From a virus, in the IMG/VR virus record IMGVR_UViG_3300011271_000005, positions 1 through 57,460 of that record: 57,460 bases of DNA; one strand, 5' to 3'. The notes under the pieces were generated by a model. The model ran no database searches. It saw only the letters and a list, made by a program, of their open reading frames with translations, and had not been told where the DNA came from. Each line of letters begins with the position of its first letter. Within the stretch, counting starts at the first letter, position 1. Both the position numbers and the translations under genes were made by a program. Positions 10,194 through 57,460 of the stretch are shown here, piece by piece.

Positions 10194-10239
10194 TCTCTCC
10201 AAGTTTGGTGTACATGATGTATACTTTTTCTTGGAGAGA
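10194..10239 (+). promoter_or_regulatory. Hairpin that sequesters the SD of the downstream endonuclease gene
   Basis: Perfect 10-nt arms tctctccaag (10194..10203) and cttggagaga (10230..10239). The 3' arm contains ggagag and the A of ATG 10239. Confidence 0.45.
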
Positions 10240-11629: not shown

Positions 11630-12634
11630 GTGGGAATAACTTCTGAAACTGCACGCGGTATATGTACAATGGCCTTAAAAGAGGCTGGTGTACTTGGAGT
11701 TGGCCAAACAGCGTTATCAGAAGATATAAATGATACATTCACATTATTAAACAGAATGATGGCAACTTGGCAGCGTAAAAGATGGGTTGTCCCATCGCTT
11801 TATGATATTGCTGCTATTGTGAATGGATTGAAATCTAATCCTATTGGTCCAGGTCAATTTTGGAATGCGCAACGTCCTGATAAGATACAAGCCGCTTATT
11901 TTATTCAAAATATACCGGGTAGTTTATCTAGTAATGCAAACGCCGTTAGCTTTCCGCTCATACCTATATTTAGTTATGAAAATTATGCTGCTCTTGCTCT
12001 TAAACAATTACCATCATGGCCGCAATATTTCTTTTATGACAATCAATTTCCTGTCGGCAATGTTTATATTTGGCCTATTCCTGATGCAACTTATGAAGTT
12101 CATTTAATTTTAAAAAGTCCTATTGGATTTACAATTGAATTACAAACTGGTATTATTAGTACAGCTGGTCAATTATATACTAATGGTGTTTATGTCGCAG
12201 TCCCTTTAATCAATCTTACTGGCTTTGGATCAGGAGCGACAGCAAATATTACTGTAACTAGTAATAAAGTTACTGGTGTTGTAATTGATAATCCGGGCGA
12301 TGGCTATAAAATAAATGATCAATTAACAGCAACAGCAGCTAGTATCGGTGGTACCGGTAACGGATTTATTTATACTGTGACTGATGTTACAGATGATTTA
12401 AATGCAGTAATGAATATGCCTCCTGAATATGCTGAAGCGATTCATTATAATTTAACACTTCGTGTTATGAGTATGTATAATTATCCTGCTGATCCATTTA
12501 GATCAGCATTAGCTAAAGGTGCTCTTAACACAATACGTGTTGCAAATGCTCAAATACCAACATTATCTATACCAGCAGCATTAAGGAATGTTCGTGGTAG
12601 TAATTTCTATATATTTAATGCGGATGCGAGATAG
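11630..12634 (+). CDS. Head-completion / tail adaptor protein (P22 gp4-like N-terminal domain plus extra C-terminal domain)
   Basis: ALKEAGVLGVGQTALSEDINDTFTLLNRMMATWQ parallels the P22 gp4 N-terminus (ALRKLGV...DAVDDLEAMMAEW). It has a GTG start. Confidence 0.55.
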   Translation: MGITSETARGICTMALKEAGVLGVGQTALSEDINDTFTLLNRMMATWQRKRWVVPSLYDIAAIVNGLKSNPIGPGQFWNAQRPDKIQAAYFIQNIPGSLSSNANAVSFPLIPIFSYENYAALALKQLPSWPQYFFYDNQFPVGNVYIWPIPDATYEVHLILKSPIGFTIELQTGIISTAGQLYTNGVYVAVPLINLTGFGSGATANITVTSNKVTGVVIDNPGDGYKINDQLTATAASIGGTGNGFIYTVTDVTDDLNAVMNMPPEYAEAIHYNLTLRVMSMYNYPADPFRSALAKGALNTIRVANAQIPTLSIPAALRNVRGSNFYIFNADAR

Positions 12635-18728: not shown

Positions 18729-18832
18729 AAATTAAACCTCTTAAGAATCCTATTATACAAATAATTATTATAAATTTAAAATCAATATGATTTTGAAATA
18801 TTATACAAACTGCTAACCAAGTGATCCAAAAC

Positions 18833-21436
18833 ATGATTAAAGCCATTTTTAAAACCTTTTTACTATCATTGACGATTATCTCGCAAGTTCATTTTGCTTA
18901 TGCGCAAACGGCTAGCATACTTCCTCCTGCAAAGACAACTTTTTTTGATTCTAATGGAAATCCTTTAACATCTGGAACTGTAGAAAGTTACATTCCATCG
19001 ACTACTACTCACAAAACAACTTGGCAAGATGCTGCTGAAACTATTCCTAATTTAAATCCTCTTACATTAGATGCTGCTGGAAGAACTTTACTTCTAGGTT
19101 CTGGCTCATATCGCCAAGTTGTTAAAGATAGAGATGGTAATTTAATTTGGGATCAAGTTACATCATCAACTGGAAGTGGGAGTGGTGGAGGTTCGACTGC
19201 TACAGGTGATGGCGATCTTGTGGGCACAATTAAGCCTTGGGCTGGTATTAGTGCTCCAAATCAATATATGTTTACTTATGGACAAACATTAAATAGAATT
19301 ACGTTTTCTGCTTTATTTAACGCGATCACTTCTACACAAGCTGTATTTTGTACTTCTGGTAATCCAACATTAACAGGATTAAGCGACACTACTAATTTTT
19401 GGATTGGTATGTCAGTAGAAACCTCTTGTGTTCCTGCTGGTTTTACTACTATTATTTCAAAAACATCTTCTTCTGTTACATTAGCTGTAAATGCAAACAC
19501 TACAGTAAATACTAGTATTATATTTTTTCCTTGGGGGAATGGAAATCATTCTACTACTTTTACATTACCAGATTTTAGAGGATTGATTCCTGTTGGTAAT
19601 AATATTATGGGTGGTGTTGCTAGTAGTAATATTAATGATACTTATTTTGGTTCTCAGAGTGCTAGTTCTGCTGGTGGTCAAGGTGGTAGTTCGAGTGCTA
19701 CATTGCTATTAGGAAATCTTCCTAATAGCGCCTTAGTTATTTCAGATACAAGAGTGTGGCGAACTTTAGCGAATAATGGTGCCGGTAATAATGGAACAGG
19801 GCTTGTTAATACCAATACATCAGCATCCGGTACTAATTATAACGCAGTGAGTCAAAACAGCGGAGGAGGTATTAATCTTCCAATTGAAATTGGAAGTGGA
19901 TCGATTAGTGGAACATTGGGAGGTTCATCGACAGCATTCGGTATTATTCAGCCATCTAAAACTATTAATTATATTATCAAAGTTACACCAGATGCTAATT
20001 CTGCTACTGCTTCTGGTGTAACAGATTTAAATGGAATGACGGGTAGTGTTGCTTGTGGCCAAGGATTAACTTGTACAGGTAATACAATTGCTGTTACTAT
20101 AGTTGGTGGAGTGACTTCTTTAGGAGGTCAAACTGGAGTTTTAACTTGCGGAGTAGGTATAACTTGTTCTGGTTCTAGTATCAGTGCTACGGTTTCTAGT
20201 GTTTTTACTCGTACAGGTGCTATTGTAGCTGCGTCTGGTGATTATAATGCTGGTCAAATAACCTATACTCCAGTCGGAACAGGCGGAGTAGCTACAACGG
20301 ACAAGGCGATTCTAGATCGAACTGTCTGGGCCAATGACTACGGTGCGGCCTGTAATGGTGCGGGTAATGACGCCACTGCGTTTCAAAATGCAATTAACCA
20401 AGGCCAGACCGCTGGCCTATCTGTTCGCTGGACCGGCGTTTGTCTCATTAACTCAGGTCTATCGATAACGACATCTATTGATTTTGGCGGGCCGGGAAAC
20501 GGTGGGGCCTTTGGAATACAGCCTAGACTAGTCGTTACTTCTGCTAGTGTACTTGGTATTACAATCACTACTAATTCAACCGCCCCAGTCTATCTTCATG
20601 ACTTTGGGGTAACATACTCCCCCGCAGCTAATGCCGGAGTTGCCGCGATCACTGTCACTGGCACTGCGGCCAACGAAAATTCGGGCTCTAAATTTGAGCG
20701 CCTAACGTTGAACGGTGGCATTGCCATCGGTATCGACTTTGTAAAAGCTTCTCTGTGGACGCTTTCAAATTCACAAATTGTTTCTTCTAATTCTGGTGGC
20801 ACCGCCATTCGCGTCGCCAATGGCAACAACGGCGATTCCGGCGATAGCACTATCTATAGCAGCACTATCCAGCAGACTGGTGGGGCAGGTATTGGAATTG
20901 CTTGGAACAGTTCTGGTGGACTGCGGATCGAGAATAACAAAATCCTTGGTTCCACCATGGCCAATGGCATTTCGATTAATCTTGCCAACGGAGTTAACAC
21001 ATCCGACATCTTCATTGTTGGGAATAGCATCGAAGGACTGACTACTTCAGGAATTGGAGTCAATCTAACCAGAGCAGGTACGACCGGTGGATTAAACCAC
21101 GTAATCATCGGCCATAATGAACTTGGTGGCGGTCAAGTTTGCGTCTCGGTTCCGACAGATGTTAATGGTACTTGGATCAACAATATAAACATCACAGGAA
21201 ATTCTTGCCAAGTTGTCAACTCTTCAAGCGCCGTTGGATTCAACATTGTCGCTGTTATTGGCGGGGCAGTGGTCATGAACAATTCTGTATGGGCAACTGG
21301 TGCTGGGACAAATCAAGTGGCGATCATGGGTGCCTTTGGTACTGCTGCTAACTGTGTGGAAGGCTACAACACGAAAATCGGTACGTTCGCGCCATCGACC
21401 AATAGCGGTACATGCACAACAGTAGCACCATTCTAG
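18833..21436 (+). CDS. Tail fibre / tailspike: N-terminal fibre motif, phage-tail-collar domain, C-terminal right-handed beta-helix (pectate-lyase-like)
   Basis: Motifs seen: FFDSNGNPLTSGTVESY...LDAAGR; collar motifs GTIKPWAG..P..Y.F.YGQTL...F.ALFNAI and FTLPDFRGLIPVG; three (V/T)xxLxGxTG linkers; DYGAACNGAGNDATAFQNAI and NNxI repeats. The N-terminus MIKAIFKTFLLSLTIISQVHFAYA resembles a signal peptide. Confidence 0.8.
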   Translation: MIKAIFKTFLLSLTIISQVHFAYAQTASILPPAKTTFFDSNGNPLTSGTVESYIPSTTTHKTTWQDAAETIPNLNPLTLDAAGRTLLLGSGSYRQVVKDRDGNLIWDQVTSSTGSGSGGGSTATGDGDLVGTIKPWAGISAPNQYMFTYGQTLNRITFSALFNAITSTQAVFCTSGNPTLTGLSDTTNFWIGMSVETSCVPAGFTTIISKTSSSVTLAVNANTTVNTSIIFFPWGNGNHSTTFTLPDFRGLIPVGNNIMGGVASSNINDTYFGSQSASSAGGQGGSSSATLLLGNLPNSALVISDTRVWRTLANNGAGNNGTGLVNTNTSASGTNYNAVSQNSGGGINLPIEIGSGSISGTLGGSSTAFGIIQPSKTINYIIKVTPDANSATASGVTDLNGMTGSVACGQGLTCTGNTIAVTIVGGVTSLGGQTGVLTCGVGITCSGSSISATVSSVFTRTGAIVAASGDYNAGQITYTPVGTGGVATTDKAILDRTVWANDYGAACNGAGNDATAFQNAINQGQTAGLSVRWTGVCLINSGLSITTSIDFGGPGNGGAFGIQPRLVVTSASVLGITITTNSTAPVYLHDFGVTYSPAANAGVAAITVTGTAANENSGSKFERLTLNGGIAIGIDFVKASLWTLSNSQIVSSNSGGTAIRVANGNNGDSGDSTIYSSTIQQTGGAGIGIAWNSSGGLRIENNKILGSTMANGISINLANGVNTSDIFIVGNSIEGLTTSGIGVNLTRAGTTGGLNHVIIGHNELGGGQVCVSVPTDVNGTWINNINITGNSCQVVNSSSAVGFNIVAVIGGAVVMNNSVWATGAGTNQVAIMGAFGTAANCVEGYNTKIGTFAPSTNSGTCTTVAPF

Positions 21437-21602: not shown

Positions 21603-21875
21603 ATGAAACTTGTTTGGATTATATTATTATTTTTTATTAATATTTTGATAATATTGGTTTTATTATTAATATTTAATCCAATACAATACGCTAATCTTGC
21701 TCAAACTGCTATTTTACAAGAATATGTAAATGTTTACTGCATTGATTCAGAAGAAGCGCATAAGAATAAAGTTAAATTTGCAGCACAAGGTGCGTTAATG
21801 TCTAGACTTACTATAGGAACTGGTTTAGGTTCCATCGCATTGTTAGAATACGCCAAATGTAAAATTTCACATTAG
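21603..21875 (+). CDS. Membrane protein (90 aa), holin/lysis-accessory candidate
   Basis: N-terminal TM helix WIILLFFINILIILVLLLIF. Confidence 0.45.
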   Translation: MKLVWIILLFFINILIILVLLLIFNPIQYANLAQTAILQEYVNVYCIDSEEAHKNKVKFAAQGALMSRLTIGTGLGSIALLEYAKCKISH

Positions 21876-21888
21876 AGGAATTTTTAAA

Positions 21889-22266
21889 ATGCCCACAATT
21901 ACGCCTCTTGGTTGGATTGGTATTATTATTTTATTTAATAGTACTCTTTTAGGTGGAGCTAGTCAACTTGGTGATTTAGCTTTAAGTCCTGTTATCGTAA
22001 AGGCTATTCTAGCAGTAGCTACATTAGGAAATGGTTTTCTCGGTGGATTGGTAACTATGTTTTCAACTTCTGCTAATATGGTTAAATCTATTGATCAGGG
22101 AACTATGGTTAAAGCTGTGCGCTCAATGCCCGGTATTGAAGATATTGTTGTAAATGCTAAAGCTACTCCTACCTTAGCTGCTATGGCTGTTGATCCTAGC
22201 GAACCTAAAATTAGTTCCATTGATAGCGATAAGTTTAAAATCCAAGCTATCGCTAAGAATGGTTAA
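21889..22266 (+). CDS. Multi-TM membrane protein (125 aa), holin candidate
   Basis: There are two to three hydrophobic segments (GWIGIIILFNSTLLGG, VIVKAILAVATLGNGFLGGLVTMF) followed by a hydrophilic tail. Confidence 0.45.
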   Translation: MPTITPLGWIGIIILFNSTLLGGASQLGDLALSPVIVKAILAVATLGNGFLGGLVTMFSTSANMVKSIDQGTMVKAVRSMPGIEDIVVNAKATPTLAAMAVDPSEPKISSIDSDKFKIQAIAKNG

Positions 22267-22271
22267 TTAAA

Positions 22272-22589
22272 GTGACAGATGTTACTCGTGTCGAGCGCAT
22301 ACCTGCAATCATGCAACAGCTTGAGCATTTAACAGCTAGCGTTCAAAGGCTGGAAGGCCTGATCGTGCGTGAGATTCAAGAATTGAAGTCCGAGCAAATT
22401 GCAGATTTGCGACGGCAAAATGAACGTTTAGCTGATGATCAGCGGCGTGCATGGGAAGCAATCAGAACACTTGAAAATAGAGGTAATCAATATTATGGTA
22501 GTATGAAAACGGCTCATACTATTACAGCTACAATAAGTGCATTAATTGGCGGTAGTATCGCAGCAGTGATAGCTAAATTCGTCCATTAA
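22272..22589 (+). CDS. Coiled-coil protein with a C-terminal TM anchor (105 aa)
   Basis: GTG start. It has heptad-like charged sequence and ends TISALIGGSIAAVIAKFVH. It is noticeably GC-richer (29/60 at 22321..22380). Confidence 0.45.
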   Translation: MTDVTRVERIPAIMQQLEHLTASVQRLEGLIVREIQELKSEQIADLRRQNERLADDQRRAWEAIRTLENRGNQYYGSMKTAHTITATISALIGGSIAAVIAKFVH

Positions 22590-23391: not shown

Positions 23392-24051
23392 TTAGAAGTG
23401 TCTATTGAGTTCCAGTAATACCAGACTAGTTGCGGGCACGCCCTGCTGTGCTGGCGCGTAAAGGTAGCTTACGTCGGAAGTCCAGCCCGCTGCGATCACA
23501 GTTTCCGCACCAACGCCATTTACCCACATATTAACGCCTTTGCGTTGCATACCACCGAACCGAAAATAAGGTGTCGTGGCTGCGAAGAAATTGGCAGGAA
23601 CGACCAATGGAATAGGTGACTGTGATGGTGTTACTACCGCTGACTGTGTCGATGGGAAGAAGTTATATCCTAACTTGATGGTCTCCAAGCCTACAAACTT
23701 AGAACCATGCTGGTTGACAACTGGCAAAGTCGCGCTGGTATTGGTGATGAATTCATAGCCTAAGCTCAAATCAAGAGCAGCGAACCAATTGCCGTTCCAG
23801 AACTGATATCCACCCTGCGCTTTAAGAATGCCACCAGCAGCAAATACCGAACCATTAATGCCACTACCAACAATATCAGCATTACTGCCATCACCAGCGA
23901 CACCAAAACCTGCATACCAACCGCTACAGCTACCAGCAGCACACGAACTTGCTGAAAGATATGGCGTGGCTTTAACAGGAAGATCGGCGGCTAAAGCAGG
24001 TGAAGCAAGTAAGGAAAGAGCTCCAATTAACGCGATAAACAGCTTTTTCAT
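23392..24051 (-). CDS. Outer-membrane beta-barrel protein (Omp25/Omp31/RopB-like or Lom/Ail-like moron)
   Basis: Signal peptide MKKLFIALIGALSLLASPALA/ADLPVKA. It shows alternating aromatic/Gly beta-strand patterns (GWYAGFGVAG, GGYQFWNG, LSLGYEF, IKLGYNFF). The C-terminal residue is Phe (LELNRHF). Strong SD aggag. GC-rich island. Confidence 0.75.
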   Translation of the reverse strand: MKKLFIALIGALSLLASPALAADLPVKATPYLSASSCAAGSCSGWYAGFGVAGDGSNADIVGSGINGSVFAAGGILKAQGGYQFWNGNWFAALDLSLGYEFITNTSATLPVVNQHGSKFVGLETIKLGYNFFPSTQSAVVTPSQSPIPLVVPANFFAATTPYFRFGGMQRKGVNMWVNGVGAETVIAAGWTSDVSYLYAPAQQGVPATSLVLLELNRHF

Positions 24052-46119: not shown

Positions 46120-46159
46120 GATTTCATTGGATTTAACCAATTTAAAAAGGAACTTAAAC

Positions 46160-46825
46160 ATGAATTTGGAAGTTTTGCGAGCCGTAGCAAATGCGACTGC
46201 GGCTAATTCTGTTATGTATGTAACTGCGGCTGAAGGCAAGCCTCTTGCTGAAGCTGGTTTGATTTCTGTTGATTTTAATCATCGCGATCCAAATGATCCT
46301 AATAAGGTTGCAGCACATGTAACTGATAAGGGTGTATATGCTCTTACAGGCTCTAATGGTGTTCATAAGTCTGCTATTGTTATTCCACCTCATAGTTCTA
46401 CCTTTACTATTCAGAAGGGCGGAATTGAATTGCCGAAGGTTGAACGTGGCTTTAAAAAGGGCTTTGGTGGAGGCGGTCGTGCTGCCAAGTATGATTTTGA
46501 AGCTATGGAAGTTGGTGATTTCTTTTTCGTTGCCAATTCAGAAGTTAAGAATGGTGACGCTGCAAAGACCTTGGGAAGTGCTGCTGGTTCTGCTAATCAG
46601 CGCTTTGCTGTAGGTACTGGTGAAAAGGAAACTGTGCAGCGTGCAAAGCGTGGTACTGATCATAAAGCTATTAAAGGTCATGATGGCAAGAACGTGATGG
46701 AAACTGTTGAAGTGGAAAAGAAGAATTTCACTAAGAAGTTTGTTGTGCGTCCTGTTAAGGCAAATGTTGAGTATGGCGCATTCACTGCTCCTGCTGATGG
46801 TGCAGTGGTTCATCGTTCGGTTTGA
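46160..46825 (+). CDS. Hypothetical protein (221 aa) forming its own promoter-to-terminator unit
   Basis: ATG 46160 follows aagga. The track TTG start at 46127 would coincide with the predicted transcription start. A strong terminator follows. Confidence 0.6.
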   Translation: MNLEVLRAVANATAANSVMYVTAAEGKPLAEAGLISVDFNHRDPNDPNKVAAHVTDKGVYALTGSNGVHKSAIVIPPHSSTFTIQKGGIELPKVERGFKKGFGGGGRAAKYDFEAMEVGDFFFVANSEVKNGDAAKTLGSAAGSANQRFAVGTGEKETVQRAKRGTDHKAIKGHDGKNVMETVEVEKKNFTKKFVVRPVKANVEYGAFTAPADGAVVHRSV

Positions 46826-46833
46826 TAAGATAG

Positions 46834-46858
46834 GGCGGGAAGAAATTCCCGCCTTTTT
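46834..46858 (+). terminator. Rho-independent terminator
   Basis: ggcgggaa-gaaa-ttcccgcc (8-bp stem, GNRA-type loop) followed by TTTTT. Confidence 0.85.
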
Positions 46859-48194: not shown

Positions 48195-48226
48195 GGCCTA
48201 GCTTCTTGAATGGAGCTAGGCCTTTT
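48195..48226 (+). terminator. Rho-independent terminator ending the early operon
   Basis: ggcctagct / agctaggcc (9-bp stem, 10-nt loop) followed by TTTT. Confidence 0.7.
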
Positions 48227-48240: not shown

Positions 48241-48864
48241 ATGCAATCGCCCAAACCAACCATATTTGATGCTAGAAATGTCGCGCCTTGGGTTGTCAGC
48301 GAGCCTCAACAGCTATCGTCTTTATGGGGTTCAAATGTTCAATCTCAACCATCACCAAAGCCTGATTTTGCTGACAATGACGAGCTTAAGAAAGCATTTG
48401 GAATTGAATTAGGGCGTGGCTTGGATACCTTCAATGCTGGATTGAAAGTATTTGACGAGGTGATGCCTAAAGCATTGTGGGCAAGTGTAAATTGGGCAAA
48501 AGACCCTATAGTTATTGCTTCTCGTGATGCTTATATAATTACGTTAAAAAAAGCAGCTAAACCGCTTGACAAAGAGGAACTTTTAGCAGAGGTTTTGGAA
48601 CAATCGCGATTCGCACCTGAATTTAAAGATAAAGCTTCACTTTTAAAATTATATTCTGATATTGCTGGTTACACTGGTAAGATTGCGATAGATGCTTCCA
48701 CTAATACAACAAACAATACTCAAAATAACAATCTTACTAAAATAGTTTTAGTTAAAGGTTCACAAGAGCCAGTTTCGAATAACAATAAAGCTCCTGATAT
48801 GAATAATCAATCAAAAATACAAAATAGCTTGCCCAATCTTAAGTTGGTTGGAGGCTTACGGTAG
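48241..48864 (+). CDS. Terminase small subunit candidate
   Basis: 207 aa. The pattern ...WAKDPIVIASRDAYI...LDKEELLAEVLEQSR...KDKASLLKLYSDIAGYTGK is typical of TerS central/oligomerisation regions. It is the first gene after the early terminator. Confidence 0.45.
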   Translation: MQSPKPTIFDARNVAPWVVSEPQQLSSLWGSNVQSQPSPKPDFADNDELKKAFGIELGRGLDTFNAGLKVFDEVMPKALWASVNWAKDPIVIASRDAYIITLKKAAKPLDKEELLAEVLEQSRFAPEFKDKASLLKLYSDIAGYTGKIAIDASTNTTNNTQNNNLTKIVLVKGSQEPVSNNNKAPDMNNQSKIQNSLPNLKLVGGLR

Positions 48865-48894: not shown

Positions 48895-50385
48895 ATGCGA
48901 AAGAAACTTGGTATTGCAGTATTAGCAATTATTGCTAGTGCTAGTGTTGCATATGCTGCTGGCGTATGGAACGGACTTCCGATTGTTGGTGATCCCGGTA
49001 ACACGGTTTGTCTTGATTTTGGTAGCACTCCTGCTACTACGCCGGGTAACTGTAACCAGTTTAGTCCTGCTGGTCCTACTGGTTTGACTGGTAACGAGCT
49101 TATTCCTACTGATACTGGCCAGCAGAATCCAGCTACGGTGTATATCCCAGCATCGTTGCTTGGTAGTTCTGTCAATCGTTTGATTGGTGGTGATATGACC
49201 ACTAATCTTAATCAGCGTCCTAGCACTGTTAAAGGTGTTGCTTCGCTAGCAACGTTATCTCCAACTGCTGCTGTGATTACGGCTGATCGTTGGTGGACAA
49301 TTGCTCCTGCTGCTGGTGTTACTGTTACTATCGATAGCACCGCTGCTACTGCTGTTATTCCGGGTTTAAGTAATACTAAAGCGCTTCGTTTAGCTCGTAC
49401 TACCTCTGGCGCTGCTGGTATTATGTGCATTGGTCAAACGCTTGATGCTGCTGCTTCTCAGCCGCTTATTGGTAATAACGCTGTATTTTCGTTCTGGGAA
49501 TCCAACGGCCCGGCTCAATCTGCAACTGCTGGTAACTTCACTGTAAACGTTGATTATACGTCTGCTGCTGATGCTGTTGCTACTCAGGCAACGCTTGGCT
49601 TTGCTGGTGCTAATGGTTCGCTATTTGCACTTGGTGATGTAGGCTTGCTTTCTGCTGGCCCTACTAATATGACTCGTGCTATTGCTGGCTTCTCTGCTGG
49701 TACCACTGGTACGGTAACTGCTGGTGTTGCAATGATTGCTGGCTCTACGACTTGGAAACGATATGGTGTTTATGCACCAATTCCGATTAACATTCCCGGT
49801 ACTACTATGCCAGTTACGAGTGTTAGTGTTTCGATTTGCTTCGCTCCGATTCTTACTACTGCTATTACTACGGATTGGATTGAAGTTAACGGTATGCAGT
49901 TAGAAGCTAAGCCTCCTGCTACCAGCGTTACAAATCCAATTGTTAGTGTTCTTGCTCCTAATGGTGTTACTGCTCCTAGTGCTTTTGAACGTCGCTCTGC
50001 GGCATTTGAACAGACATTATCACAGTACTATTGGTATTATAACTTTGAAAGTCAGGTTGCTGGTGGTATTACTACTGTTGCAAGCTGTACAGATGTCACT
50101 ACTGCTCTTGCTAATTGTTGGTTTCAATTTCCTGTTAACATGCGCATTGCTCCAAATGTAAAGTACACTGCTGGTTTTCAAGCATTTACTACAACTGCCT
50201 ATAGTGCTGTTGGCGCATGTACTGCTTTGGCTGCATCAACATCATATGTGACTGTTCCATCTACTACTGGTGCTTTAGCGGCTTGTACAGCTGCTTTAAC
50301 TCCTGCTGCTGGAACTGCTAATAGTTTAACCGCATTAGGCACCGCGTCCTCCACCGGTATTATTTCAGCCTCGGCGGAACCGTAG
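48895..50385 (+). CDS. Exported Ala/Thr/Gly-rich protein A (496 aa), unknown function
   Basis: SD ggag. Signal peptide MRKKLGIAVLAIIASASVAYA/AG. The mature part has few charged residues and contains LIGGDMTTNLNQRP...ITADRWW. Confidence 0.65.
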   Translation: MRKKLGIAVLAIIASASVAYAAGVWNGLPIVGDPGNTVCLDFGSTPATTPGNCNQFSPAGPTGLTGNELIPTDTGQQNPATVYIPASLLGSSVNRLIGGDMTTNLNQRPSTVKGVASLATLSPTAAVITADRWWTIAPAAGVTVTIDSTAATAVIPGLSNTKALRLARTTSGAAGIMCIGQTLDAAASQPLIGNNAVFSFWESNGPAQSATAGNFTVNVDYTSAADAVATQATLGFAGANGSLFALGDVGLLSAGPTNMTRAIAGFSAGTTGTVTAGVAMIAGSTTWKRYGVYAPIPINIPGTTMPVTSVSVSICFAPILTTAITTDWIEVNGMQLEAKPPATSVTNPIVSVLAPNGVTAPSAFERRSAAFEQTLSQYYWYYNFESQVAGGITTVASCTDVTTALANCWFQFPVNMRIAPNVKYTAGFQAFTTTAYSAVGACTALAASTSYVTVPSTTGALAACTAALTPAAGTANSLTALGTASSTGIISASAEP

Positions 50386-50416
50386 GATTTAATCTGAAAC
50401 AGAAAGGATTAAACCT

Positions 50417-50839
50417 ATGCCCTTAACTCTTCCGAGTAAACAAGTCAGACAATACACCACTTCTAAACAGTTAATTGGCGGTGATGATTTTAACGGAATC
50501 GTCGCTCAATTAAATTCATCAGCGGTTGGTATCACTGCTGGTGTTGGTGGTGGTTCTGCTAATGCTGTTGCACTAGCTAATGCTTTTAATACTATATCAA
50601 CGGTCGCTAGTGCCAATGATAGTGTAAAACTTCCAAAAGGTTTTGCTGGTTTGGAAGTCAGTATTGCCAATCAAGCCGCAGCTAACTCACTTCAAGTATT
50701 TACTTCTAGTAAAGGCCTTATCAATAATACTGATGGTGTCGCTACTGGAGTAGCTTTAGCTGCTAGTCAAACATCATATACATTATATTCGTGTTTTAGA
50801 ATAGATGCTACTAATGGTGAAATTTGGTTATCTAAGTAA
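50417..50839 (+). CDS. Cassette protein B (140 aa), no signal peptide
   Basis: SD aaagga. The protein is Ala/Gly/Ser-rich. A terminator follows. Confidence 0.6.
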   Translation: MPLTLPSKQVRQYTTSKQLIGGDDFNGIVAQLNSSAVGITAGVGGGSANAVALANAFNTISTVASANDSVKLPKGFAGLEVSIANQAAANSLQVFTSSKGLINNTDGVATGVALAASQTSYTLYSCFRIDATNGEIWLSK

Positions 50840-50853
50840 TTACTCCCCAGACT

Positions 50854-50884
50854 TGCCCCGGTGCAGAAGCCGGGGCATCTTTTT
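50854..50884 (+). terminator. Rho-independent terminator inside the cassette
   Basis: tgccccgg / ccggggca (8-bp stem, 8-nt loop) followed by TCTTTTT. It lies inside the N-terminal extension of track ORF 50805..51335, which argues against that extension. Confidence 0.75.
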
Positions 50885-50897
50885 AGGAATAAGTTTT

Positions 50898-51335
50898 ATG
50901 AAGAAATTATTAGTACATATTGTAGCATTATTTTTATTACTTTGCCCACAATTAGCTTTAGCTGCTAATGCATTTTTAGCTGATTCTAAAATTAAAATTA
51001 CATCTATTATTGTAGCTAATAACACGACTGCTGTTGTAATTAGCACTACACAATCAACTGTTTATTCAGTAGATGCTTTTAACAATGCTGGTGCGATTGC
51101 TTATGTAAAATTATATAACGCATCAACTGGTACTTGTGGTACTGGAACTCCGCAAGCTCGTTATATGATTCCATTTGGGGCTAGTTCCTCTGGTGGCGGA
51201 TTTAATGTTTCAAATATTAACGGCGATGCTTATGCTAATGGAATTGTGATGTGTATTACTACTGGTATAGCAGATACTGATATTGTTGCTCCGAGCTCTA
51301 ATGCTTATATTGTCAATATTCATTATAAGAATTAA
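50898..51335 (+). CDS. Exported protein C (145 aa)
   Basis: SD agga. Signal peptide MKKLLVHIVALFLLLCPQLALA/AN. It shares a TG(T/A)TCG(T/A)GT-containing segment with 51530..52216. Confidence 0.65.
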   Translation: MKKLLVHIVALFLLLCPQLALAANAFLADSKIKITSIIVANNTTAVVISTTQSTVYSVDAFNNAGAIAYVKLYNASTGTCGTGTPQARYMIPFGASSSGGGFNVSNINGDAYANGIVMCITTGIADTDIVAPSSNAYIVNIHYKN

Positions 51336-51518
51336 ATGAAAACCATTTTAACAGCCATTCTTATCATTAGTGTGGGCATAGTGACTGCTTACGCTGGTGG
51401 TTTTTCTATGCTTCATGTTGGCTCTGCTGATGGTAATGGTGGCGGAGGTGGTGGTTGTTCTAACCAACTTGATTTTTCACAAGCTTGTAATTCTCAGTAT
51501 ATACCGATTATTCATTAA
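51336..51518 (+). CDS. Exported Gly-rich peptide D (60 aa)
   Basis: The ATG abuts the upstream stop. Signal peptide MKTILTAILIISVGIVTAYA/GG. The roughly 40-aa mature part has GNGGGGGGC and two Cys. Confidence 0.5.
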   Translation: MKTILTAILIISVGIVTAYAGGFSMLHVGSADGNGGGGGGCSNQLDFSQACNSQYIPIIH

Positions 51519-51529
51519 AGGATAGCACA

Positions 51530-52216
51530 ATGTTTAAAAAGCTTCTGCTAACAATCGCATTCTCGTTAGTTGCGAGCAGTGCATTTGCGGTATGTGGTGC
51601 TATCCCATTAACTATTAAAGATGCTAGTGCAGCAACTCAAAACATATCATCTGCTACTGCTGCTGATGGTAATTGTAAAACTTATATAGACGCTGATACT
51701 GCTTCACAAATTCATACCGATTTGACTGCATCTATTCCTGCCGGTGCTAATTTAATTGGTAAAATTGGTATTGATCAGACTACACCGGGAACAACTAATG
51801 CTGTAGCAGTCACAGCTGGTACTAATCGCATTGGTTATGTTACTGATGATCCTTGTAGCAATGCTAGTTCGAAACTATATAAGCCCATTAGTATAACAAC
51901 CGCTACCACAACCAATATTATTACTGGGACTGCTGCAAAGATAATATATATTTGTCAGCTTTTTCTAACTTCTGCCGCAGCAGATAATATTGCGGTTATC
52001 GAAGGAACTACAGGAGCTACGTGTGGTGCTGGTACCGCAGGTGTAATAGGTGGCACAACTGCAACCAATGGGCTTAACTTTGCGGCCAATGGTGGCGTGT
52101 CAATTGGTAATGGCGCTGCTAATATTGCGCGAACAGCTACTGTCAATAATGATATTTGTTTGATTACGTCAGCGTCTACTCCGCTTGCTGGAGGTATCAC
52201 TTATGCTGTGCAATAA
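51530..52216 (+). CDS. Exported protein E (228 aa), apparent paralogue of C
   Basis: SD aagga. Signal peptide MFKKLLLTIAFSLVASSAFA/VC. The protein is Thr/Ala/Gly-rich. Confidence 0.65.
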   Translation: MFKKLLLTIAFSLVASSAFAVCGAIPLTIKDASAATQNISSATAADGNCKTYIDADTASQIHTDLTASIPAGANLIGKIGIDQTTPGTTNAVAVTAGTNRIGYVTDDPCSNASSKLYKPISITTATTTNIITGTAAKIIYICQLFLTSAAADNIAVIEGTTGATCGAGTAGVIGGTTATNGLNFAANGGVSIGNGAANIARTATVNNDICLITSASTPLAGGITYAVQ

Positions 52217-52217
52217 A

Positions 52218-53144
52218 ATGAAAAGTCTTTTTATTGTTCTAATGCTATTTTTACTTCCAATATCGGCTGAAGCCGCAACTTGTTTTTGGGTCGGTGGTGT
52301 CGGTACTTGGAGTACGGCTAATGCTGCGTCATGGTCATCTTCTACTGGAGGTGCTGGGAGTACTTGTGCTGCGACTGGTGGTATTCCAAAGCAAGCGGCT
52401 GATACAGCTACGTTTGATGGAGCGTCTGGTGGTGGAACCGTTACTGTTGATACAACTATTAACGGTGTGACGCTCACTCAGATTACAATGGGTGCATTTA
52501 CAGGCACGCTTGATTTCAGCATTAATAATCCAAGTGTGACCATGGCGGTGATGTCTATAAGTGGAGCTGGCACACGGACTGTGAAGCTGGGAAGTGGTAC
52601 GTTCACGCTCACGTCGAATAATACCAGCAATATGTTCGATGCATCTACGATCACAGGATTAACCCTTACGGCCGGAACGTCCACAATAAATTTCGCTCCA
52701 TCTAGCGCACCCAATGGCTCATGGGGATTAGCGAGTGGTGGATTGAATGGCGCAAACGCACTCAACAATGTTACGTTTACATTTGGATCAAGCTCCGCAG
52801 TGCGAAATGCTTTCATTACTGGAAGCAACACGATTAACGTGCTGACTGTGGGAGCCAATGTTGCATTACAGCCTAATTCAAATACGACGCAAATTTTAAC
52901 CTCTCTTATAATCGGGGGTACTAGTTCTCTTCAGACGATGCTGGGAGGGGCAGCTTCAACGCCTGCGATCATTAGTATAGCGACAGGTACAATCAACTTA
53001 AGTTGGGCTGGAATTCGAGCTGTAACCTTCACAGGAGGGGCGACATTCATAGCGGCGAACTCTTTTGATCTAGGCAATAATAGCGGAATTACGATTACTG
53101 GACCTGCAGGTGGCGCTGGTGGTGGCCATATCATCGGCGGGTAA
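52218..53144 (+). CDS. Exported beta-helix-like protein F (308 aa)
   Basis: ATG 52218 lies 1 nt after the upstream stop. Signal peptide MKSLFIVLMLFLLPISAEA/AT. CFWVGGVGTWSTANAASW and repeated G-T-x-T-L-T strings resemble autotransporter-type beta strands. Confidence 0.6.
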   Translation: MKSLFIVLMLFLLPISAEAATCFWVGGVGTWSTANAASWSSSTGGAGSTCAATGGIPKQAADTATFDGASGGGTVTVDTTINGVTLTQITMGAFTGTLDFSINNPSVTMAVMSISGAGTRTVKLGSGTFTLTSNNTSNMFDASTITGLTLTAGTSTINFAPSSAPNGSWGLASGGLNGANALNNVTFTFGSSSAVRNAFITGSNTINVLTVGANVALQPNSNTTQILTSLIIGGTSSLQTMLGGAASTPAIISIATGTINLSWAGIRAVTFTGGATFIAANSFDLGNNSGITITGPAGGAGGGHIIGG

Positions 53145-53150
53145 AATACA

Positions 53151-56100
53151 GTGAAAATTTCTCGTCGAAGTTTTGTTCACGGTGCCTGTACAATTGCTGC
53201 AGTCTCATTAAGACCAAATCCTGTTGAAGCATGGTTTCATGGTATGCCTATCATATCGCCGGGCCATTCAGTTCTCAACGCGAACTTCGCTGCTGATCAG
53301 TATTTGAATATCGCCAAGGGATTCACCGTTTCTCTTTCTGGAACGATGACGCCAGCAAGTCTAAATGCGGATCAATATCCGACCGGGATTATCCCGAACA
53401 CCTATGGTGGGAACACCGGATCGAGCGGAATCGATCCATCGTATTTTGGGCACTATACGATCGCTTGGACTGGCGTATCGGCTTTCACGGTAGCCGGAAA
53501 GCCCGTCATCATTTACAATGGTGGCACTTTTGCGGGTTTGGGCGGCGCTTCTGGCGTCGTTCAAAACAATGTCACCATCGGAACGACAGCTAACCCAAGC
53601 GTTGAGTTGGCTGTTGGCGCGCTGATCACCAGCGTGACCACGAGCGGCGGCGGTCTTGTTCAGTTTGGAACGACGACTGGTTTCTGGGGCAACTTCGCTA
53701 CCGGCACGAATGTTAAACTTAATAATCTGACGGGCCTTCCGGCTGGCCCGAATGCCGATGGATCGTGGACGGCGACCAAGGTCGACAATCAGACCTTCAC
53801 ACTCAACGGCTCTGCGGCGTTCGCTGGATTGGTCAGCATCAACACCTCCGGGACGGTCGGAGTAAACACGGAGGCTATCGCCAGCGTCACACAATTCGCT
53901 TTCACTTGGAATCCAACGTTCTCCGCTGTAAATGTCACCCACAATTTCAGCAATTTCATCTTCTGCAACACTGCAAATCTGACTGACCTTAACGCCGGGT
54001 TGCAGCTTAGCCGTCCCTGCATTGCGACAATCAAAGCGGTCAACCCGCGCTATGTCCGCTTCATGGACGCGATGGCGACGCAGGGATTGGTTTCGAACTT
54101 CGCGAGCAAGGCTCCGAGCACCTCCATGGTATGGGGCGCTTTGAGATTTGATCCCACATATTATGGTGGCACGACCGCCGGATCGGCTGATGCCTATACC
54201 TGCTCGAACCCCTCCGCTTCCGGAGGCGGCGCCTATGTAGATGGCGAAACCGTCACAGTCTATGTGGACCGATCGAGCACGACGACCAGCCCGACACTCA
54301 ATGTAAGCGGGCGCGGCGCAGCGAAAATCTTTTCGCGATCGATGCAAAATCTGGTCATGAACATAACTAGTACGGGAGTCAAGAACGCCGCTCTGACCTC
54401 CATATCCGGCTCTGGGACCACAGCTACGGCGACGACCACGGCGCCACACGGATTGACCAACGGCGATCAGTTCGGGATGACGATCGCCGGAGTGACACCC
54501 AGCACCTTTAACGGAACGGTTCTCTGCACCGTCACGGGCGCAAGCACGTTTACCTATCCGAACACGACCAGCGGTGCGGCTTCGGTTGCGGGCAACTATT
54601 CGGTCAATACACGGATCGGTGACATCCTCACCTTCACGTTCACCAATGCCGATTTTGGAACTTATGCTCCGACATATATCGTACAGAGCACCGATCTCAG
54701 CATCGACACCCTTGGTGGACATATAGGCGGCAGTGTCGGTTCGCTTAACGCCGATCTCACCTTAACCGGCAGCGGAATATTTGTTCAGAACAGCGGCGGT
54801 GGATATCTTCCGGTCAATTGCAGGACTGCCACGACATGCGCATTTGGTGTTTCCGGATCGACAATTGAAGCATGCAGCCCCGGCACGATGTCGGGAATCA
54901 CCCAATCTGGAACAGTTGGCTTTCTGACCATCAACACCGCTGCCACCTTTATCTACAATACGCTTTTGGGCGGCTTCATCTTTATTGGCGTCGGCGGTGT
55001 CACCTGCGGCGTTCCGCTGGAATACATCTATGAGATATGCACCAGGGCGAATGCTGGAGCGTGGGTTTGCTTGAACGTTATTTACACTCAGGCTGCGACG
55101 GTCTCTCTCGGTGCAGCCATGGCAACAAATCTGCCGGGGCTTCCGGTGGTCTGCGAGTATAGTAACGAGGTCTGGAATTTCGGCGAATTCCCGGTTACTC
55201 AGTGCAACGGTCTTGCTGCATGCATTGGATTTGGGACTTCGGGCGGCGGCTACATGGATTTCTACGGTCTGCGCACGGCTCAATTGTTGCCCGCGTTCGC
55301 TTCAGGCTGGACCGGCACCGGAAGACCCATCAACACGACAGCGGCGGGTAGAGACCTTGAATTAGTAAATGCCATGACTCCGCTGGAAGGGAGCGGAGGC
55401 TTTACAGGTCAAATGGTGCCGCTGCGCTGGAACGGCGGATGTCTGTCGCCTACTCCGATTGTTGCCACGGGCTCTATCACCGCGACGACATTGACCATGG
55501 CCGTTTCCGCAGGAGCCGTACCCAGGTGCGGAATGCAGGTTACAGGATCGGGCGTGACCGCTGGAACTGTGATAACCAAGGTGGTCAGCGGTACACAATT
55601 CACGGTCAACAATTCGCAGTCCGTCGCCAGCACGACGATTACGATCACTAATCCGCTCTACTCCGCACTCAGCGGCCCCGGCGGCACGGCATCATCGACA
55701 GCGTACAATGCTTTTCCGACGCGCCCGATTGATCTGGTGGACGGGACGTCTTACGCAACCTATGTTCAAGGGGCGCTGGCAGCGAATAACGCCAGCTCAT
55801 GGACTGGCACGCAATCGTTCTACAATACCCTGTTTCAGGCCAGCGCGGACTATGCCAGTGGCATCCCGGCATCGATGGCGAGTGCCATTACGGCTTGGAG
55901 CAATGACATCAGGGATGGCACGAAGAACGGAATTCGCAGCAGTGCGGGGATGTCTTCTTTCCTCGGAGTGACGAATGCCGCCGGAGGCAATAACTTTCTT
56001 CCGGGATGGGAAGCCAAAGTCGCCGTCTATGATGGCGCAAGGCCGAGTGGAAAGACAAACCTGAGCGTCAGGTGTTACGAAGGGATGATTCCGCAACAAT

Positions 56101-56459
56101 CGATGTCCAATAGTGATGGCGGCGTTAACCTAACCACTAGCGTCACCGACATGACAAACAAATTCAATGGCAACGCTTGGGTTCTCTCTCCAACCTACGG
56201 AGCAAGCAACGACGCTGTAGCGTTGAACATGGTCACTCTTGCGCTGGCCTATAAGAATGATCCGCAACTTGCTGCTGATCAGTTATACTTTTGGAACCAA
56301 CAAAAGGCCATTCATGTAAATCGGCCATTCAGCGGCGGCCAATTCGGTATCGAGGGAGGTAGTTCTAGCACATGGGCACTTTATCCGGGTGGCTTGACGT
56401 CAACACCATGGCAAAACTTGACCGGGCAAGCGCAGTACAATGCATTGAATGTCAATTAA
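53151..56459 (+). CDS. Giant GC-rich protein G (1102 aa): twin-arginine-type signal, fibre-like middle, possible glycoside-hydrolase-like C-terminal region
   Basis: GTG start. MKISRRSFVHGACTIAAVSLRPNPVEA/W carries an SRRxF motif, an h-region and AxA. The fibre-like strings are TLNVSGRGAAKI and TAPHGLTNGDQFGMTIAGV..FNGT..TV...TFTY. The C-terminal region has VVCEYSNEVWNF (NE motif). Coherent codon usage is seen only in this frame. Confidence 0.7.
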   Translation: MKISRRSFVHGACTIAAVSLRPNPVEAWFHGMPIISPGHSVLNANFAADQYLNIAKGFTVSLSGTMTPASLNADQYPTGIIPNTYGGNTGSSGIDPSYFGHYTIAWTGVSAFTVAGKPVIIYNGGTFAGLGGASGVVQNNVTIGTTANPSVELAVGALITSVTTSGGGLVQFGTTTGFWGNFATGTNVKLNNLTGLPAGPNADGSWTATKVDNQTFTLNGSAAFAGLVSINTSGTVGVNTEAIASVTQFAFTWNPTFSAVNVTHNFSNFIFCNTANLTDLNAGLQLSRPCIATIKAVNPRYVRFMDAMATQGLVSNFASKAPSTSMVWGALRFDPTYYGGTTAGSADAYTCSNPSASGGGAYVDGETVTVYVDRSSTTTSPTLNVSGRGAAKIFSRSMQNLVMNITSTGVKNAALTSISGSGTTATATTTAPHGLTNGDQFGMTIAGVTPSTFNGTVLCTVTGASTFTYPNTTSGAASVAGNYSVNTRIGDILTFTFTNADFGTYAPTYIVQSTDLSIDTLGGHIGGSVGSLNADLTLTGSGIFVQNSGGGYLPVNCRTATTCAFGVSGSTIEACSPGTMSGITQSGTVGFLTINTAATFIYNTLLGGFIFIGVGGVTCGVPLEYIYEICTRANAGAWVCLNVIYTQAATVSLGAAMATNLPGLPVVCEYSNEVWNFGEFPVTQCNGLAACIGFGTSGGGYMDFYGLRTAQLLPAFASGWTGTGRPINTTAAGRDLELVNAMTPLEGSGGFTGQMVPLRWNGGCLSPTPIVATGSITATTLTMAVSAGAVPRCGMQVTGSGVTAGTVITKVVSGTQFTVNNSQSVASTTITITNPLYSALSGPGGTASSTAYNAFPTRPIDLVDGTSYATYVQGALAANNASSWTGTQSFYNTLFQASADYASGIPASMASAITAWSNDIRDGTKNGIRSSAGMSSFLGVTNAAGGNNFLPGWEAKVAVYDGARPSGKTNLSVRCYEGMIPQQSMSNSDGGVNLTTSVTDMTNKFNGNAWVLSPTYGASNDAVALNMVTLALAYKNDPQLAADQLYFWNQQKAIHVNRPFSGGQFGIEGGSSSTWALYPGGLTSTPWQNLTGQAQYNALNVN

Positions 56460-56530: not shown

Positions 56531-57460
56531 ATGGTGGAGCAAATTATCGAGTTCCCTGATAAATTAGCCTTCTTATTATTTGAAAGTGCTCGTTTAAAAA
56601 TACCTTGGGGCGGTCGTGGTGCTGGCAAAACTGAGAATATTTGTCGTGCATTAATTCTATTATCTCGTACTAAAAAGCTTCGTATTCTTTGTGGTCGTGA
56701 ATTTCAAAATTCTATTGATGAAAGCGTCAAAGCAACCATTGAAGCTAATATTGAAGAGTTAGGATTAAGTGATGATTTTTATATAACTAAAAAACAAATC
56801 ATTTGTAGGTCTACAGGCTCACGTTTTATTTTTATGGGCTTGCGTTATAATATCAGTAAAATTAAATCAATGGGCCGAATCGATATTTGTTGGATTGAAG
56901 AAGCTGATAAAACTTCTGCTAATACATTAGATAAATTATTTCCTACTATTCGTGGTCGTTCTGATTTAGAAGAAGATAAAGGTGGTCCGTTTGGCGATGG
57001 TCCGGAAATATGGATGAGCTTCAATCCAGATTTAGAAGATGATGAAGTATATAAGCGATATGTTTTAAATCAAATTAAATATGCTCCTGAATATGTCAAT
57101 GGTAAGCGATATGCTATTGTAGCTAAAGTTAATTATTGGGATAATAAATGGTTTCCTCCTGATCTTAAGATGGAAATGGAGGTTATGCGTAATGCTAGTC
57201 AAGATAAATATCTTCAAGTGTGGGAAGGCCATGTTAAACAGATTTTAGAAGGCTCTATTTATGCAGAAGAATTACAAGAAGTACTTAAGAATAGTCGTCG
57301 AAAGCATGTTCCTCATGATCCTAATAAACCAGTATTAACATTTTGGGATTTAGGTCATTCTGATAAGACTGCTATTTGGTTTGTACAACGTGCTGGTGTT
57401 GAATTCAATGTAATTAATTATTATGAAGATAGATTAAAGAAAATACCATTTTATGTTAAA
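56531..57460 (+). CDS. terL: Terminase large subunit, N-terminal (ATPase) part; the ORF runs off the window and continues at 124..555
   Basis: SD aaggagg is followed by ATG 56531. Walker A is PWGGRGAGKT. CWIEEAD looks like Walker B. There is no stop before 57460. The joined gene is 1362 nt. Confidence 0.85.
   Translation, partial: MVEQIIEFPDKLAFLLFESARLKIPWGGRGAGKTENICRALILLSRTKKLRILCGREFQNSIDESVKATIEANIEELGLSDDFYITKKQIICRSTGSRFIFMGLRYNISKIKSMGRIDICWIEEADKTSANTLDKLFPTIRGRSDLEEDKGGPFGDGPEIWMSFNPDLEDDEVYKRYVLNQIKYAPEYVNGKRYAIVAKVNYWDNKWFPPDLKMEMEVMRNASQDKYLQVWEGHVKQILEGSIYAEELQEVLKNSRRKHVPHDPNKPVLTFWDLGHSDKTAIWFVQRAGVEFNVINYYEDRLKKIPFYVK
57338..57460. repeat. Terminal direct repeat, right copy (identical to 1..123)
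   Basis: Verbatim identity over 123 nt. Confidence 0.95.

Follow-up and report, generated by a model that had tools for sequence, protein, structure and literature searches.

IMG/VR virus record IMGVR_UViG_3300011271_000005, taken here over its full 57,460 nucleotides (the window), is a phage genome in which a cassette of seven genes, named c1-c7 in 5′ to 3′ order within 48895-56459, lies between the genes for the small and large terminase subunits, terS and terL. Six of the seven products, and the tailspike encoded elsewhere in the same genome, start with what look like genuine signals for export. The explanation that best accommodates them is that the cassette is a variable module of a P22-like podovirus lineage for host-glycan recognition and depolymerisation, with its proteins routed through the periplasm, and the chance that this is right is put at about even. 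Tailed-phage virions are thought to assemble entirely in the cytoplasm and, because the particles are built there, leaders on fibre-like genes and on a tailspike are odd. Phage receptor-binding-protein loci are already known, as are single exported phage proteins. Literature searches for signal-bearing tail fibres and tailspikes found no lineage with its whole receptor-binding repertoire, tailspike included, on leaders for the general secretory (Sec) or twin-arginine translocation (Tat) pathway, and no conserved multi-gene exported fibre-like module.

Leaders on the cassette proteins and the tailspike

Signals were called by rule-based tests (charge, hydrophobic or h-region, AxA site) together with conservation in homologues. 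The N-termini of c1 and c3-c7 have a positively charged n-region, an uncharged hydrophobic core of 10-14 residues and an AxA-type site. Under these rules c1, c3, c4, c5, c6 and the tailspike all show the full set of Sec-type (signal peptidase I) features, namely the n-region, an h-region of 7-15 residues and small residues at -3 and -1. The leader of c7 is of another kind. It reads MKISRRSFVHGACTIAAVSLRPNPVEA/W, in which S-R-R-S-F-V is near the Tat consensus (S/T)-R-R-x-F-L-K, with a mild hydrophobic stretch and VEA/W. Tat leaders of c7 orthologues have SRRSFV, TRRRFL or SRRDFI at this place (MKVSRRSFVHAGC..., MITRRRFLLGS... and MKISRRDFIHAGC...), and other orthologues have plain Sec leaders. 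The 142 long members of the family divide into 53 with a Tat-like leader, 30 with a Sec-like leader and 59 with neither. Because two mechanistically different leaders interchange, which is otherwise hard to explain, export itself appears to be the property selected.

Conservation in the other families points the same way. A signal-like N-terminus is kept in 113/120 homologues of c1 and in 114/120 of c5. Within the c1 family conservation is lowest in the signal region (consensus fraction 0.40 vs 0.82 in the jelly roll core); this is the pattern expected of a signal peptide and therefore supports the signals being real. A crude scan of all open reading frames (ORFs) revealed only two further real genes with signal N-termini, those for the 871-residue tailspike (18821-21436) and for a 219-residue protein on the minus strand. 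With eight signal-bearing genes among about 80, the position-corrected probability of six in one run of seven is ~5e-5. The lipobox L-[AS]-[GA]-C is absent from c1 and c3-c7. The c5 family does have A-F-A-[AV]-C near its cleavage site, and that Cys is part of the even totals given below. Judged from sequence, then, the signal-bearing proteins would be exported and their leaders cleaved.

Three minor features of these N-termini were also seen. In the high-GC relatives L002, L003, L004, L006 and L008 and in the tailspikes of L017-L032, the predicted cleavage site is very often followed by Gln (AxA/Q), a pattern that recalls the 'Q-rule' of exported proteins in Bacteroidetes (PMC10653852). Directly 5′ of the c1 homologue in two relatives (L012, 8848-9420; L010, 8705-9073) is a small ORF in which a Tat-like leader (RRS[IV]...AxA) is fused to a copy of about the first 70 residues of the major capsid protein. 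Around a dozen signal-less members of the c7 family (P0280, P0302, P0311, P0269, P0284, P0300 and others) have a short motif, MGILLLG.. or MTVGLLSFA.., directly before the conserved mature N-terminus, and such starts may be an alternative, non-export N-terminal tag.

The tailspike leader, which the initial annotation of the window had missed, extends the puzzle beyond the cassette to all receptor-binding proteins of the phage. This canonical tailspike (18833..21436, plus strand) is in the P22 gp9 position, following Ad3, Hc3 and the ejection proteins, and has a 24-residue signal-like N-terminal extension (MIKAIFKTFLLSLTIISQVHFAYA/QT). It matches the Collar domain at 1.2e-9. By tblastn, alignments within residues 1-113 link it to the tailspikes of the cultured podophages PBR31, X14, PAE2 and P4282, and the part that matches their N-domains is residues 33-113. 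Cultured homologues, e.g. those of X14 and PAE2, begin directly at the particle-binding domain, without the extension. A leader of 19-27 residues with the pattern MxxIFKTFxLSLxxIAxVHFAYA/Q is found in the window tailspike and in nine clade orthologues with differing C-terminal parts; a distant tailspike relative is without it. Every receptor-binding-type protein of the clade thus has a predicted leader, even the one that has to be part of the particle. An internal start yielding a signal-less isoform was considered and set aside: the sequences around the cleavage sites of c1 and the tailspike contain no Met, with a TTG inside the tailspike h-region left as a possible start.

The mature parts are rich in cysteine and poor in charge. 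Their composition is A 12.9, G 12.4, T 13.8, S 9.0 and N 7.2%, and D+E+K+R make up 7.0% vs 22.5% in the other proteins of the phage. Mature Cys counts are even throughout (c1 8, c3 2, c4 2, c5 6, c6 2, c7 16, tailspike 12), as they are in 109/113 of the c1 family, 108/114 of the c5 family and 7/7 tailspike orthologues. Cys makes up 1.4-5% of six of the signal-bearing proteins and 0.69% of the seventh, c6, vs 0.37% for the other proteins pooled; the ejection proteins have no Cys at all. The Cys pattern fits disulfide-bonded extracytoplasmic proteins, in which the Cys residues would be paired. The initial annotation, working from the letters of the window, had described seven co-oriented ORFs, six of them with export signals (Sec, plus Tat on c7), and mature parts rich in Ala, Gly, Thr, Ser and Asn and poor in charge. 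All seven ORFs are present on the plus strand where it placed them, the six N-termini read exactly as it quoted them, conform to the rules above and keep their signals in orthologues, and the composition is as it stated.

The cassette genes and the c3-c7 module

The first gene, c1 (48895..50385, plus strand), encodes a tail-fibre-fold protein of 496 residues with a Sec-type signal at 1-21 and 8 mature Cys. A conserved Cys-loop N-terminal module (~22-93) is followed by a CenC/CBM-type jelly roll (~94-340) and a C-terminal beta-sandwich (369-496). The AlphaFold2 (AF2) model, built on a 61-sequence alignment, has a predicted local distance difference test score (pLDDT) of 77. Foldseek matches it in BFVD to phage tail fibres and 'CenC-like carbohydrate-binding' proteins (E 5e-22 to 1e-10, template-modelling score 0.45-0.70, 420-480 aligned columns), among them fibres of BcepNazgul, FoX4, Atu_ph04 and cyanophages, and in the PDB to jelly rolls of the CBM4/22/30 type. 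At the sequence level no PHROG, Pfam, NCBIfam or PDB match places c1 in an annotated fibre family, and tblastn against 50,697 GenBank phage records gave no match. More broadly, searches of c1-c7 against PHROGs, Pfam, NCBIfam, PADLOC and PDB sequences and profiles found no family match, and the PADLOC anti-phage defence models matched none of the seven.

More than 230 homologues of c1, at 55-80% identity, are present on phage-sized contigs. In the loci recovered c1 is always upstream of terL, and in L009 and L013 immediately so. Among phages that share just 31-51% identity in terL, portal and capsid proteins, and that span 35-63% GC, c1 retains 62-70% identity. It is a core gene of the lineage. 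Its first 74 residues, the signal and Cys-loop module, are 42% identical to those of a 222-residue protein of L047 with a different C-terminal domain; a common N-terminus with a swapped C-terminus indicates fibre-like modularity. Across 185,579 species genomes c1 has a single match, on a contig that is an entire phage and was binned in a metagenome-assembled genome (MAG); these are therefore phage genes, not host genes.

The next gene, c2 (50417..50839, plus strand), is the only one of the seven without a signal peptide. Its product has 140 residues and 1 Cys, and a 41% identical homologue directly follows c1 in L007/L008. Family searches (PHROGs, Pfam, NCBIfam) gave no match. Its position suggests that it may be a fibre chaperone or an accessory partner of c1.

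The remaining five genes are a mobile module, which recurs in unrelated phages and moves between them. They are closely packed, with intergenic gaps of 0-11 nt. The Sec-type signal of c3 (50898..51335, plus strand; 145 residues) precedes a small mature protein with 2 Cys, and a 64% identical homologue has the same module position in L047. A by-eye likeness had suggested that c3 is a paralogue of the C-terminal half of c5; BLASTP (E = 0.24) gives this no support. c4 (51336..51518, plus strand; 60 residues, Sec-type signal) yields a 40-residue Gly-rich mature peptide ending in a Cys-x9-Cys loop, and its C-terminal motif GC..(L)DFSQACNS.Y is kept at the same module position in L042 (67%), L048, L052 and L056. 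c5 (51530..52216, plus strand; 228 residues, Sec-type signal) has a variable middle with IGKxGIDQTTPGTTN and a conserved C-terminal domain that holds 4 of the 6 mature Cys. It has at least 293 homologues, and its C-terminal domain also ends signal-less proteins of 754 and 787 residues that lie between Ad3-like and Hc3-like tail genes in L049/L057. The start of c6 (52218..53144, plus strand; 308 residues) was taken as 52218 and not the deposited 52242, which gives it a full Sec-type signal peptide and places it 1 nt past the c5 stop. Its product is Gly/Thr/Ser/Asn-rich and repetitive, with 2 Cys, and homologues of 31-45% identity directly follow c5-like genes in L042, L043, L044, L046, L048, L052 and L056. 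A particle-binding (docking) domain is not recognisable in any of c3-c7.

The last and largest gene, c7 (53151..56459, plus strand; GTG start), encodes 1102 residues with a Tat-type signal at 1-27 and 16 Cys. Its AF2 model (pLDDT 72) has a beta-rich N-terminal half, then alternating beta and alpha elements over ~596-1099, into which a small beta domain is inserted. Two sites, N672-E673 and E977, do not vary in the family and, in the model, are at strand ends of the alternating region, as in clan GH-A glycosidases, whose TIM barrel has an Asn-Glu acid/base where strand 4 ends and a nucleophile Glu where strand 7 ends. On the basis of these residues and the secondary-structure pattern, the C-terminal half is probably a (beta/alpha)8 glycosidase. 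The family comprises 4268 clusters, with members that have a Tat signal, a Sec signal or none; tblastn of c7 against GenBank phages gave no informative match. The GC content at third codon positions (GC3) is 0.60 in c7 and 0.37 in c6, against 0.12-0.28 for the genome, and the closest c7 orthologue, at 64% identity, belongs to a temperate phage of 57% GC; c7 is therefore a recent acquisition, and its GC3 speaks for horizontal transfer, a usual origin of receptor-binding-protein genes. P0019/L059, for a time taken as a distant c7 homologue, covers 7-9% of the query, probably as a small domain in an unrelated structural protein, and was discarded. A near-identical sequence of the phage has also been deposited, as a contig of 57,227 bp assigned to a MAG (GCA_009772415.1). 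It is 110 bp shorter, and its c7 is frameshifted or truncated towards the 3′ end (window ~56150-56459 vs L001 13008-13193), at 1004 vs 1102 residues, through either population heterogeneity or an assembly error.

The order of small signal protein, c4-like, c5-like and c6-like genes, with one or two genes for large signal or Tat proteins at the end, is found again in many viral contigs of unrelated phages. In L042, a temperate phage, it adjoins a GT2 gene and an integrase, and in L043, a phage with a tail terminator and E217-type tail genes, an acyltransferase. The same order is found in L044, L046, L048, L050, L051, L053, L054/L055 and L056, and in L047 and L052 the module is between terS and terL as in the window. 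Among phages its neighbours are tailspikes, lysis genes or O-antigen acyl- or glycosyltransferases, as for receptor-binding-protein genes, and in L003 and L004 it is interleaved with or beside holin, endolysin and spanin-like genes. Homologues of c7 are at late-operon ends, beside a pectate-lyase-fold protein, an SASA esterase or lysis genes. Their neighbours in five other phages have, with few exceptions, Sec or Tat leaders (an SASA esterase, a pectate-lyase-fold protein and a GH5 cellulase among them), and the L008 cassette ends in the signal-bearing GH5 cellulase (Pfam 2.8e-36). The contexts recovered for c1, c5 and c7 homologues are all phage contigs.

Proposed function, alternatives and known systems

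If the glycan-module explanation holds, the cassette would be expressed late, together with the packaging genes. It would supply c1, a tail-fibre-type protein with a conserved N-terminal module and carbohydrate-binding jelly rolls, from a terS-c1-c2 unit, and c3-c7, a translationally coupled mobile unit ending in c7 with its candidate glycosidase half. c1 and c3-c6 would cross the inner membrane via Sec, and c7 would fold first and cross via Tat. Signal peptidase would cut the leaders off, the Cys-rich mature proteins would form disulfides in the periplasm, and the exported proteins would meet host surface polysaccharide during its synthesis. In the most likely course the polysaccharide would be bound and cut, with the receptor stripped or masked on the infected cell and on debris. 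After the holin breach, fibre-type members (the tailspike, c1 and possibly a c3-c7 complex) would dock onto finished tails. The enzymatic activity, the complex and any loading onto virions are putative.

A more specific proposal is that the receptor-binding proteins, tailspike included, would leave the cytoplasm by Sec or Tat, undergo folding and oxidation in the periplasm, act at first as receptor-destroying enzymes and then be mounted on DNA-filled cytoplasmic particles at holin-driven lysis. It is tentative, its likelihood being judged well short of even. P22 tailspikes are reported to add to spike-less particles in vitro (Israel, Anderson and Levine, 1967), and because of this mounting at holin opening is plausible. 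The bacterial enzyme WceF, tailspike-like and exported by Tat, may act on the growing EPS chain in the periplasm (PMC7949094) and likewise lends the periplasmic route some plausibility. The presence of a leader on the tailspike favours mounting on tails, at least for the spike and c1.

Several results count against the module's having the function and route proposed. The literature yielded no precedent for the loading of periplasmic proteins onto cytoplasmic virions, and a protein that has crossed the inner membrane is in the periplasm and has not reached the cell surface. The conservation of c1, far above that of terL and portal in the sequences compared, is atypical for a receptor-binding protein. 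The curated profile models for Tat signals, PF10518 and TIGR01409, matched neither in the Pfam search (E <= 0.01) nor in the NCBIfam search (E <= 1), with the limits that the models are very short and that HMMER filters drop weak hits. For c7 the whole-chain Foldseek search of the PDB is led by the small inserted beta domain (E1 FCCH, phage Bridgette), with GH79, GH5 and GH39 following at E ~1; a PDB profile search found nothing; and no Pfam domain covers the catalytic half in the 10 family members sampled, two of which have unrelated or sub-threshold matches elsewhere. Comparison of the c7 family with the L008 GH5 by hhalign was negative (probability 0.1), and because of this c7 was not filed as a member of GH-A. 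Finally, a high Cys content (10, 12 and 7 Cys) is also seen in tailspikes of cultured phages that have no signal, so oxidation could happen after release. Even Cys numbers in tailspikes, once considered as proof of periplasmic folding, are weakened by this control and are kept as consistent evidence only.

The exported proteins might instead never enter the virion. They would then be periplasmic or surface lectins and glycanases derived from fibre genes, which destroy or mask the receptor (preventing superinfection or re-adsorption to debris) or loosen capsule or exopolysaccharide (EPS) for release as an accessory arm of lysis. This is a real possibility, though judged a good deal less than even. 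Leaders that look genuine are what it expects, the L003/L004 modules adjoin or are interleaved with lysis genes, and there are relevant precedents in the bacterial enzyme WceF (PMC7949094) and in the signal-bearing esterase of PBR31, which is beside lysis genes and is proposed to aid lysis (PMC10975493). The absence of recognisable docking domains from c3-c7 and the extreme conservation of c1, which suits a ligand shared by many hosts more than a receptor that differs from strain to strain, favour it further. It leaves unexplained, however, the signal on the canonical tailspike, which has a conserved particle-binding domain and is the genome's only classical receptor-binding protein. The fibre-like modularity of c1, with its N-terminal module conserved and distal domain swapped, and the c5 domain within tail-module proteins elsewhere also speak against proteins that stay free. 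A quite different thought is that there is no export: the uncleaved N-termini would be structural or membrane-association helices of cytoplasmic fibres, or export would be negligible late in infection, with oxidation following release. Virion proteins are indeed what the tail-fibre fold of c1 and the tailspike homology imply, and the cytoplasm is where every known tailed-phage virion is assembled; in the tailspike leader the sequence itself, beyond mere character, is conserved; signal-less tailspikes are equally Cys-rich; and 42% of c7-family members have no leader. Nevertheless it is improbable. Hydrophobic cores of only 10-14 residues, then AxA sites, are typical of cleaved signals, not anchors. 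Homologous tailspikes work without the extension, and plainly secretory enzymes (GH5, SASA esterase) at the same loci have the same leaders. The twin-arginine motif in 53/142 c7-family members interchanges with Sec-type leaders, and that motif is not known to have a role besides Tat targeting.

It is very unlikely indeed that the genes are cargo of benefit to the host (morons or auxiliary metabolic genes), i.e. bacterial secreted carbohydrate-active proteins for lysogenic conversion or nutrients. The foreign GC3 of c7 and c6, an Omp25/31-like gene with foreign GC3 elsewhere in the genome, and several related loci that adjoin integrases in temperate phages would suit this, and ~5% of prophage carbohydrate-active enzymes have signal peptides (PMC13507307). 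Against it, c1, c5 and c7 contexts are all phage contigs, the sole match in the species genomes being the MAG-binned phage contig; c1 is a core lineage gene with a tail-fibre fold; and the genes share the orientation of the late genes and are tightly coupled to them, unlike an autonomous cassette. The initial annotation had offered three alternatives: envelope or surface remodelling, a secreted adhesin/depolymerase set, and fibres with uncleaved hydrophobic N-termini. A secreted adhesin/depolymerase set mixed with a fibre set is what the c1 fold, the c5 domain in tail proteins and the occurrence of c3-c7 at receptor-binding-protein loci favour, and the uncleaved N-termini lose ground to genuine-looking signals and the Tat/Sec swap. 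It had also held that close homology to cytoplasmic tail fibres would tell against exported proteins. Such homology exists at fold level, or for the tailspike outside the cassette, and those homologues are without the signal.

Among known systems the loci of P22/Sf6-type podoviruses are like this one in having a P22-like neck and then a tailspike, a homologous tailspike N-domain, and conserved N-terminal modules with swapped distal domains; loci of temperate relatives adjoin O-antigen-modifying genes and integrases. Here, in contrast, every receptor-binding-type protein has a Sec or Tat leader, the extra fibre-like genes are between terS and terL and not at the late-operon end, c1 is more conserved than core genes, and the cassette proteins lack sequence-family matches. 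WceF of Pantoea stewartii is a bacterial, Tat-exported, trimeric EPS hydrolase of tailspike fold, proposed to act on polysaccharide during its periplasmic transfer or in the matrix (PMC7949094). It is a tailspike-like glycan-processing protein with a cleavable Tat signal, but it is encoded on the chromosome by a single gene in an EPS biosynthesis cluster and is a beta-helix, whereas the module here is phage-borne and multi-gene; for c7 no beta-helix is predicted (AF2) and no sequence similarity to WceF was detected. Known exported phage proteins include signal-anchor-release endolysins, spanins and the superinfection-exclusion lipoproteins Llp and Cor. They are late or accessory and reach the envelope by the host Sec machinery, as the cassette proteins would; unlike these they are single and small, with lysis or exclusion roles, whereas here there are 6-7 proteins of up to 1102 residues, with fibre folds, tailspike included, and no lipobox. 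Another is gp40 of the Xanthomonas phage PBR31, a signal-bearing SGNH esterase similar to tail-associated hydrolases, whose gene is beside the lysis genes (PMC10975493). Several depolymerase or fibre proteins encoded together, with a conserved adaptor and exchangeable enzymatic parts, may be likened to the branched multi-receptor-binding-protein systems. These systems (G7C gp63.1/gp66, CBA120 TSP1-4, the K1-5 adaptor) consist of cytoplasmic proteins with docking domains, and neither their cytoplasmic character nor recognisable docking domains are seen in the cassette.

To annotation pipelines a signal peptide counts against a structural or receptor-binding role, and predictors of receptor-binding proteins and depolymerases miss such proteins. 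The set is nevertheless widespread in the environment (>230 members for c1, at least 293 for c5 and >4000 clusters for c7), none of it with a Pfam, PHROG or NCBIfam model. Should the proteins be exported and still reach the virion, this would be a new assembly route, with virion completion across two cellular compartments. Should they be exported and stay free, they would be a widespread undescribed class of phage periplasmic effectors that destroy receptors or aid release. The c7 catalytic domain would represent a large candidate glycosidase family, and biotechnological expression of such proteins probably needs periplasmic, disulfide-forming conditions.

Genome setting and flanking genes

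The window covers the whole genome in circularly closed form, with its first 123 bases present again, exactly, at the end (1-123 and 57338-57460). This leaves 57,337 unique bp, of which the seven-gene block makes up 13.2% (about 13% in the initial annotation). The terS gene (48241..48864, plus strand) matches phrog_5334 at 1.7e-8 and has a 52% identical homologue immediately 5′ of c1 in L007/L008. The terL gene (56531..57460, plus strand; 453 residues) matches Terminase_3 at 2.5e-35 and phrog_3717 at 1.9e-46 and, because the genome is closed, crosses the window end to finish at 555. A terminator-like hairpin 5′ of terS (48195..48222, plus strand; 11-bp stem, 7 G-C pairs, T tract) forms the 5′ boundary of the terS-c1-c2 unit. 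A second, resembling an intrinsic terminator, is between c2 and c3 (50854..50877, plus strand; 9-bp stem, 7 G-C pairs, TCTTTTT tail) and divides the layout into terS-c1-c2 and c3-c4-c5-c6-c7-terL and beyond. The initial annotation was thus right on the terS-like gene and terL as flanks and on a terminator that splits the block into units of two and five genes. It had in addition regarded the block as an insertion into an adjacent terS-terL pair. This does not hold, for every relative found has at least c1 between the two.

The P22-type neck comprises P22_portal, Ad3, Hc3 and ejection proteins, then the tailspike; the genes are those for the portal (1777-4050), the adaptor Ad3 (11630-12634), the head-closure protein Hc3 (12646-14130) and an ejection protein (16899-18728), with the major capsid protein at 8930-10174. 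By portal the nearest cultured relatives are Pseudomonas phage PAE2 (44% identity) and Acetobacter phage phiAX1 (37%), and megablast of the region against phages gave no match. Two HNH/endonuclease VII-type genes (1364-1771 and 10239-10931, plus strand) are within the structural module, one between endolysin and portal and the other after the capsid gene, and are likely homing endonucleases.

Just 3′ of the tailspike, 21603-22589 (plus strand) encodes a 90-residue transmembrane protein, a 125-residue multi-transmembrane protein that by eye resembles a 120-residue protein of the L003 lysis region, and a 105-residue coiled-coil protein with a C-terminal transmembrane segment. This is likely a holin or lysis cassette, and the M15 endolysin, which has no signal, is encoded apart from it at 901-1356. 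No o-spanin lipoprotein was seen. The minus-strand gene at 23392-24051 encodes the 219-residue signal-peptide protein mentioned above. It ends in Phe, has a weak OMP_b-brl match (1.7e-3) and is Omp25/31-like by eye; its GC3 is 0.42 vs 0.12-0.28 for the genome, and a search against plasmids found no match. It is probably an outer-membrane-protein moron, which would indicate a diderm host, perhaps an alphaproteobacterium. Upstream of a tRNA-Leu gene and the terS unit, a DUF7303 protein gene (46127-46825, plus strand; 2.4e-31), 62% conserved in L007, is followed by a bidirectional terminator-like hairpin at 46832-46855.

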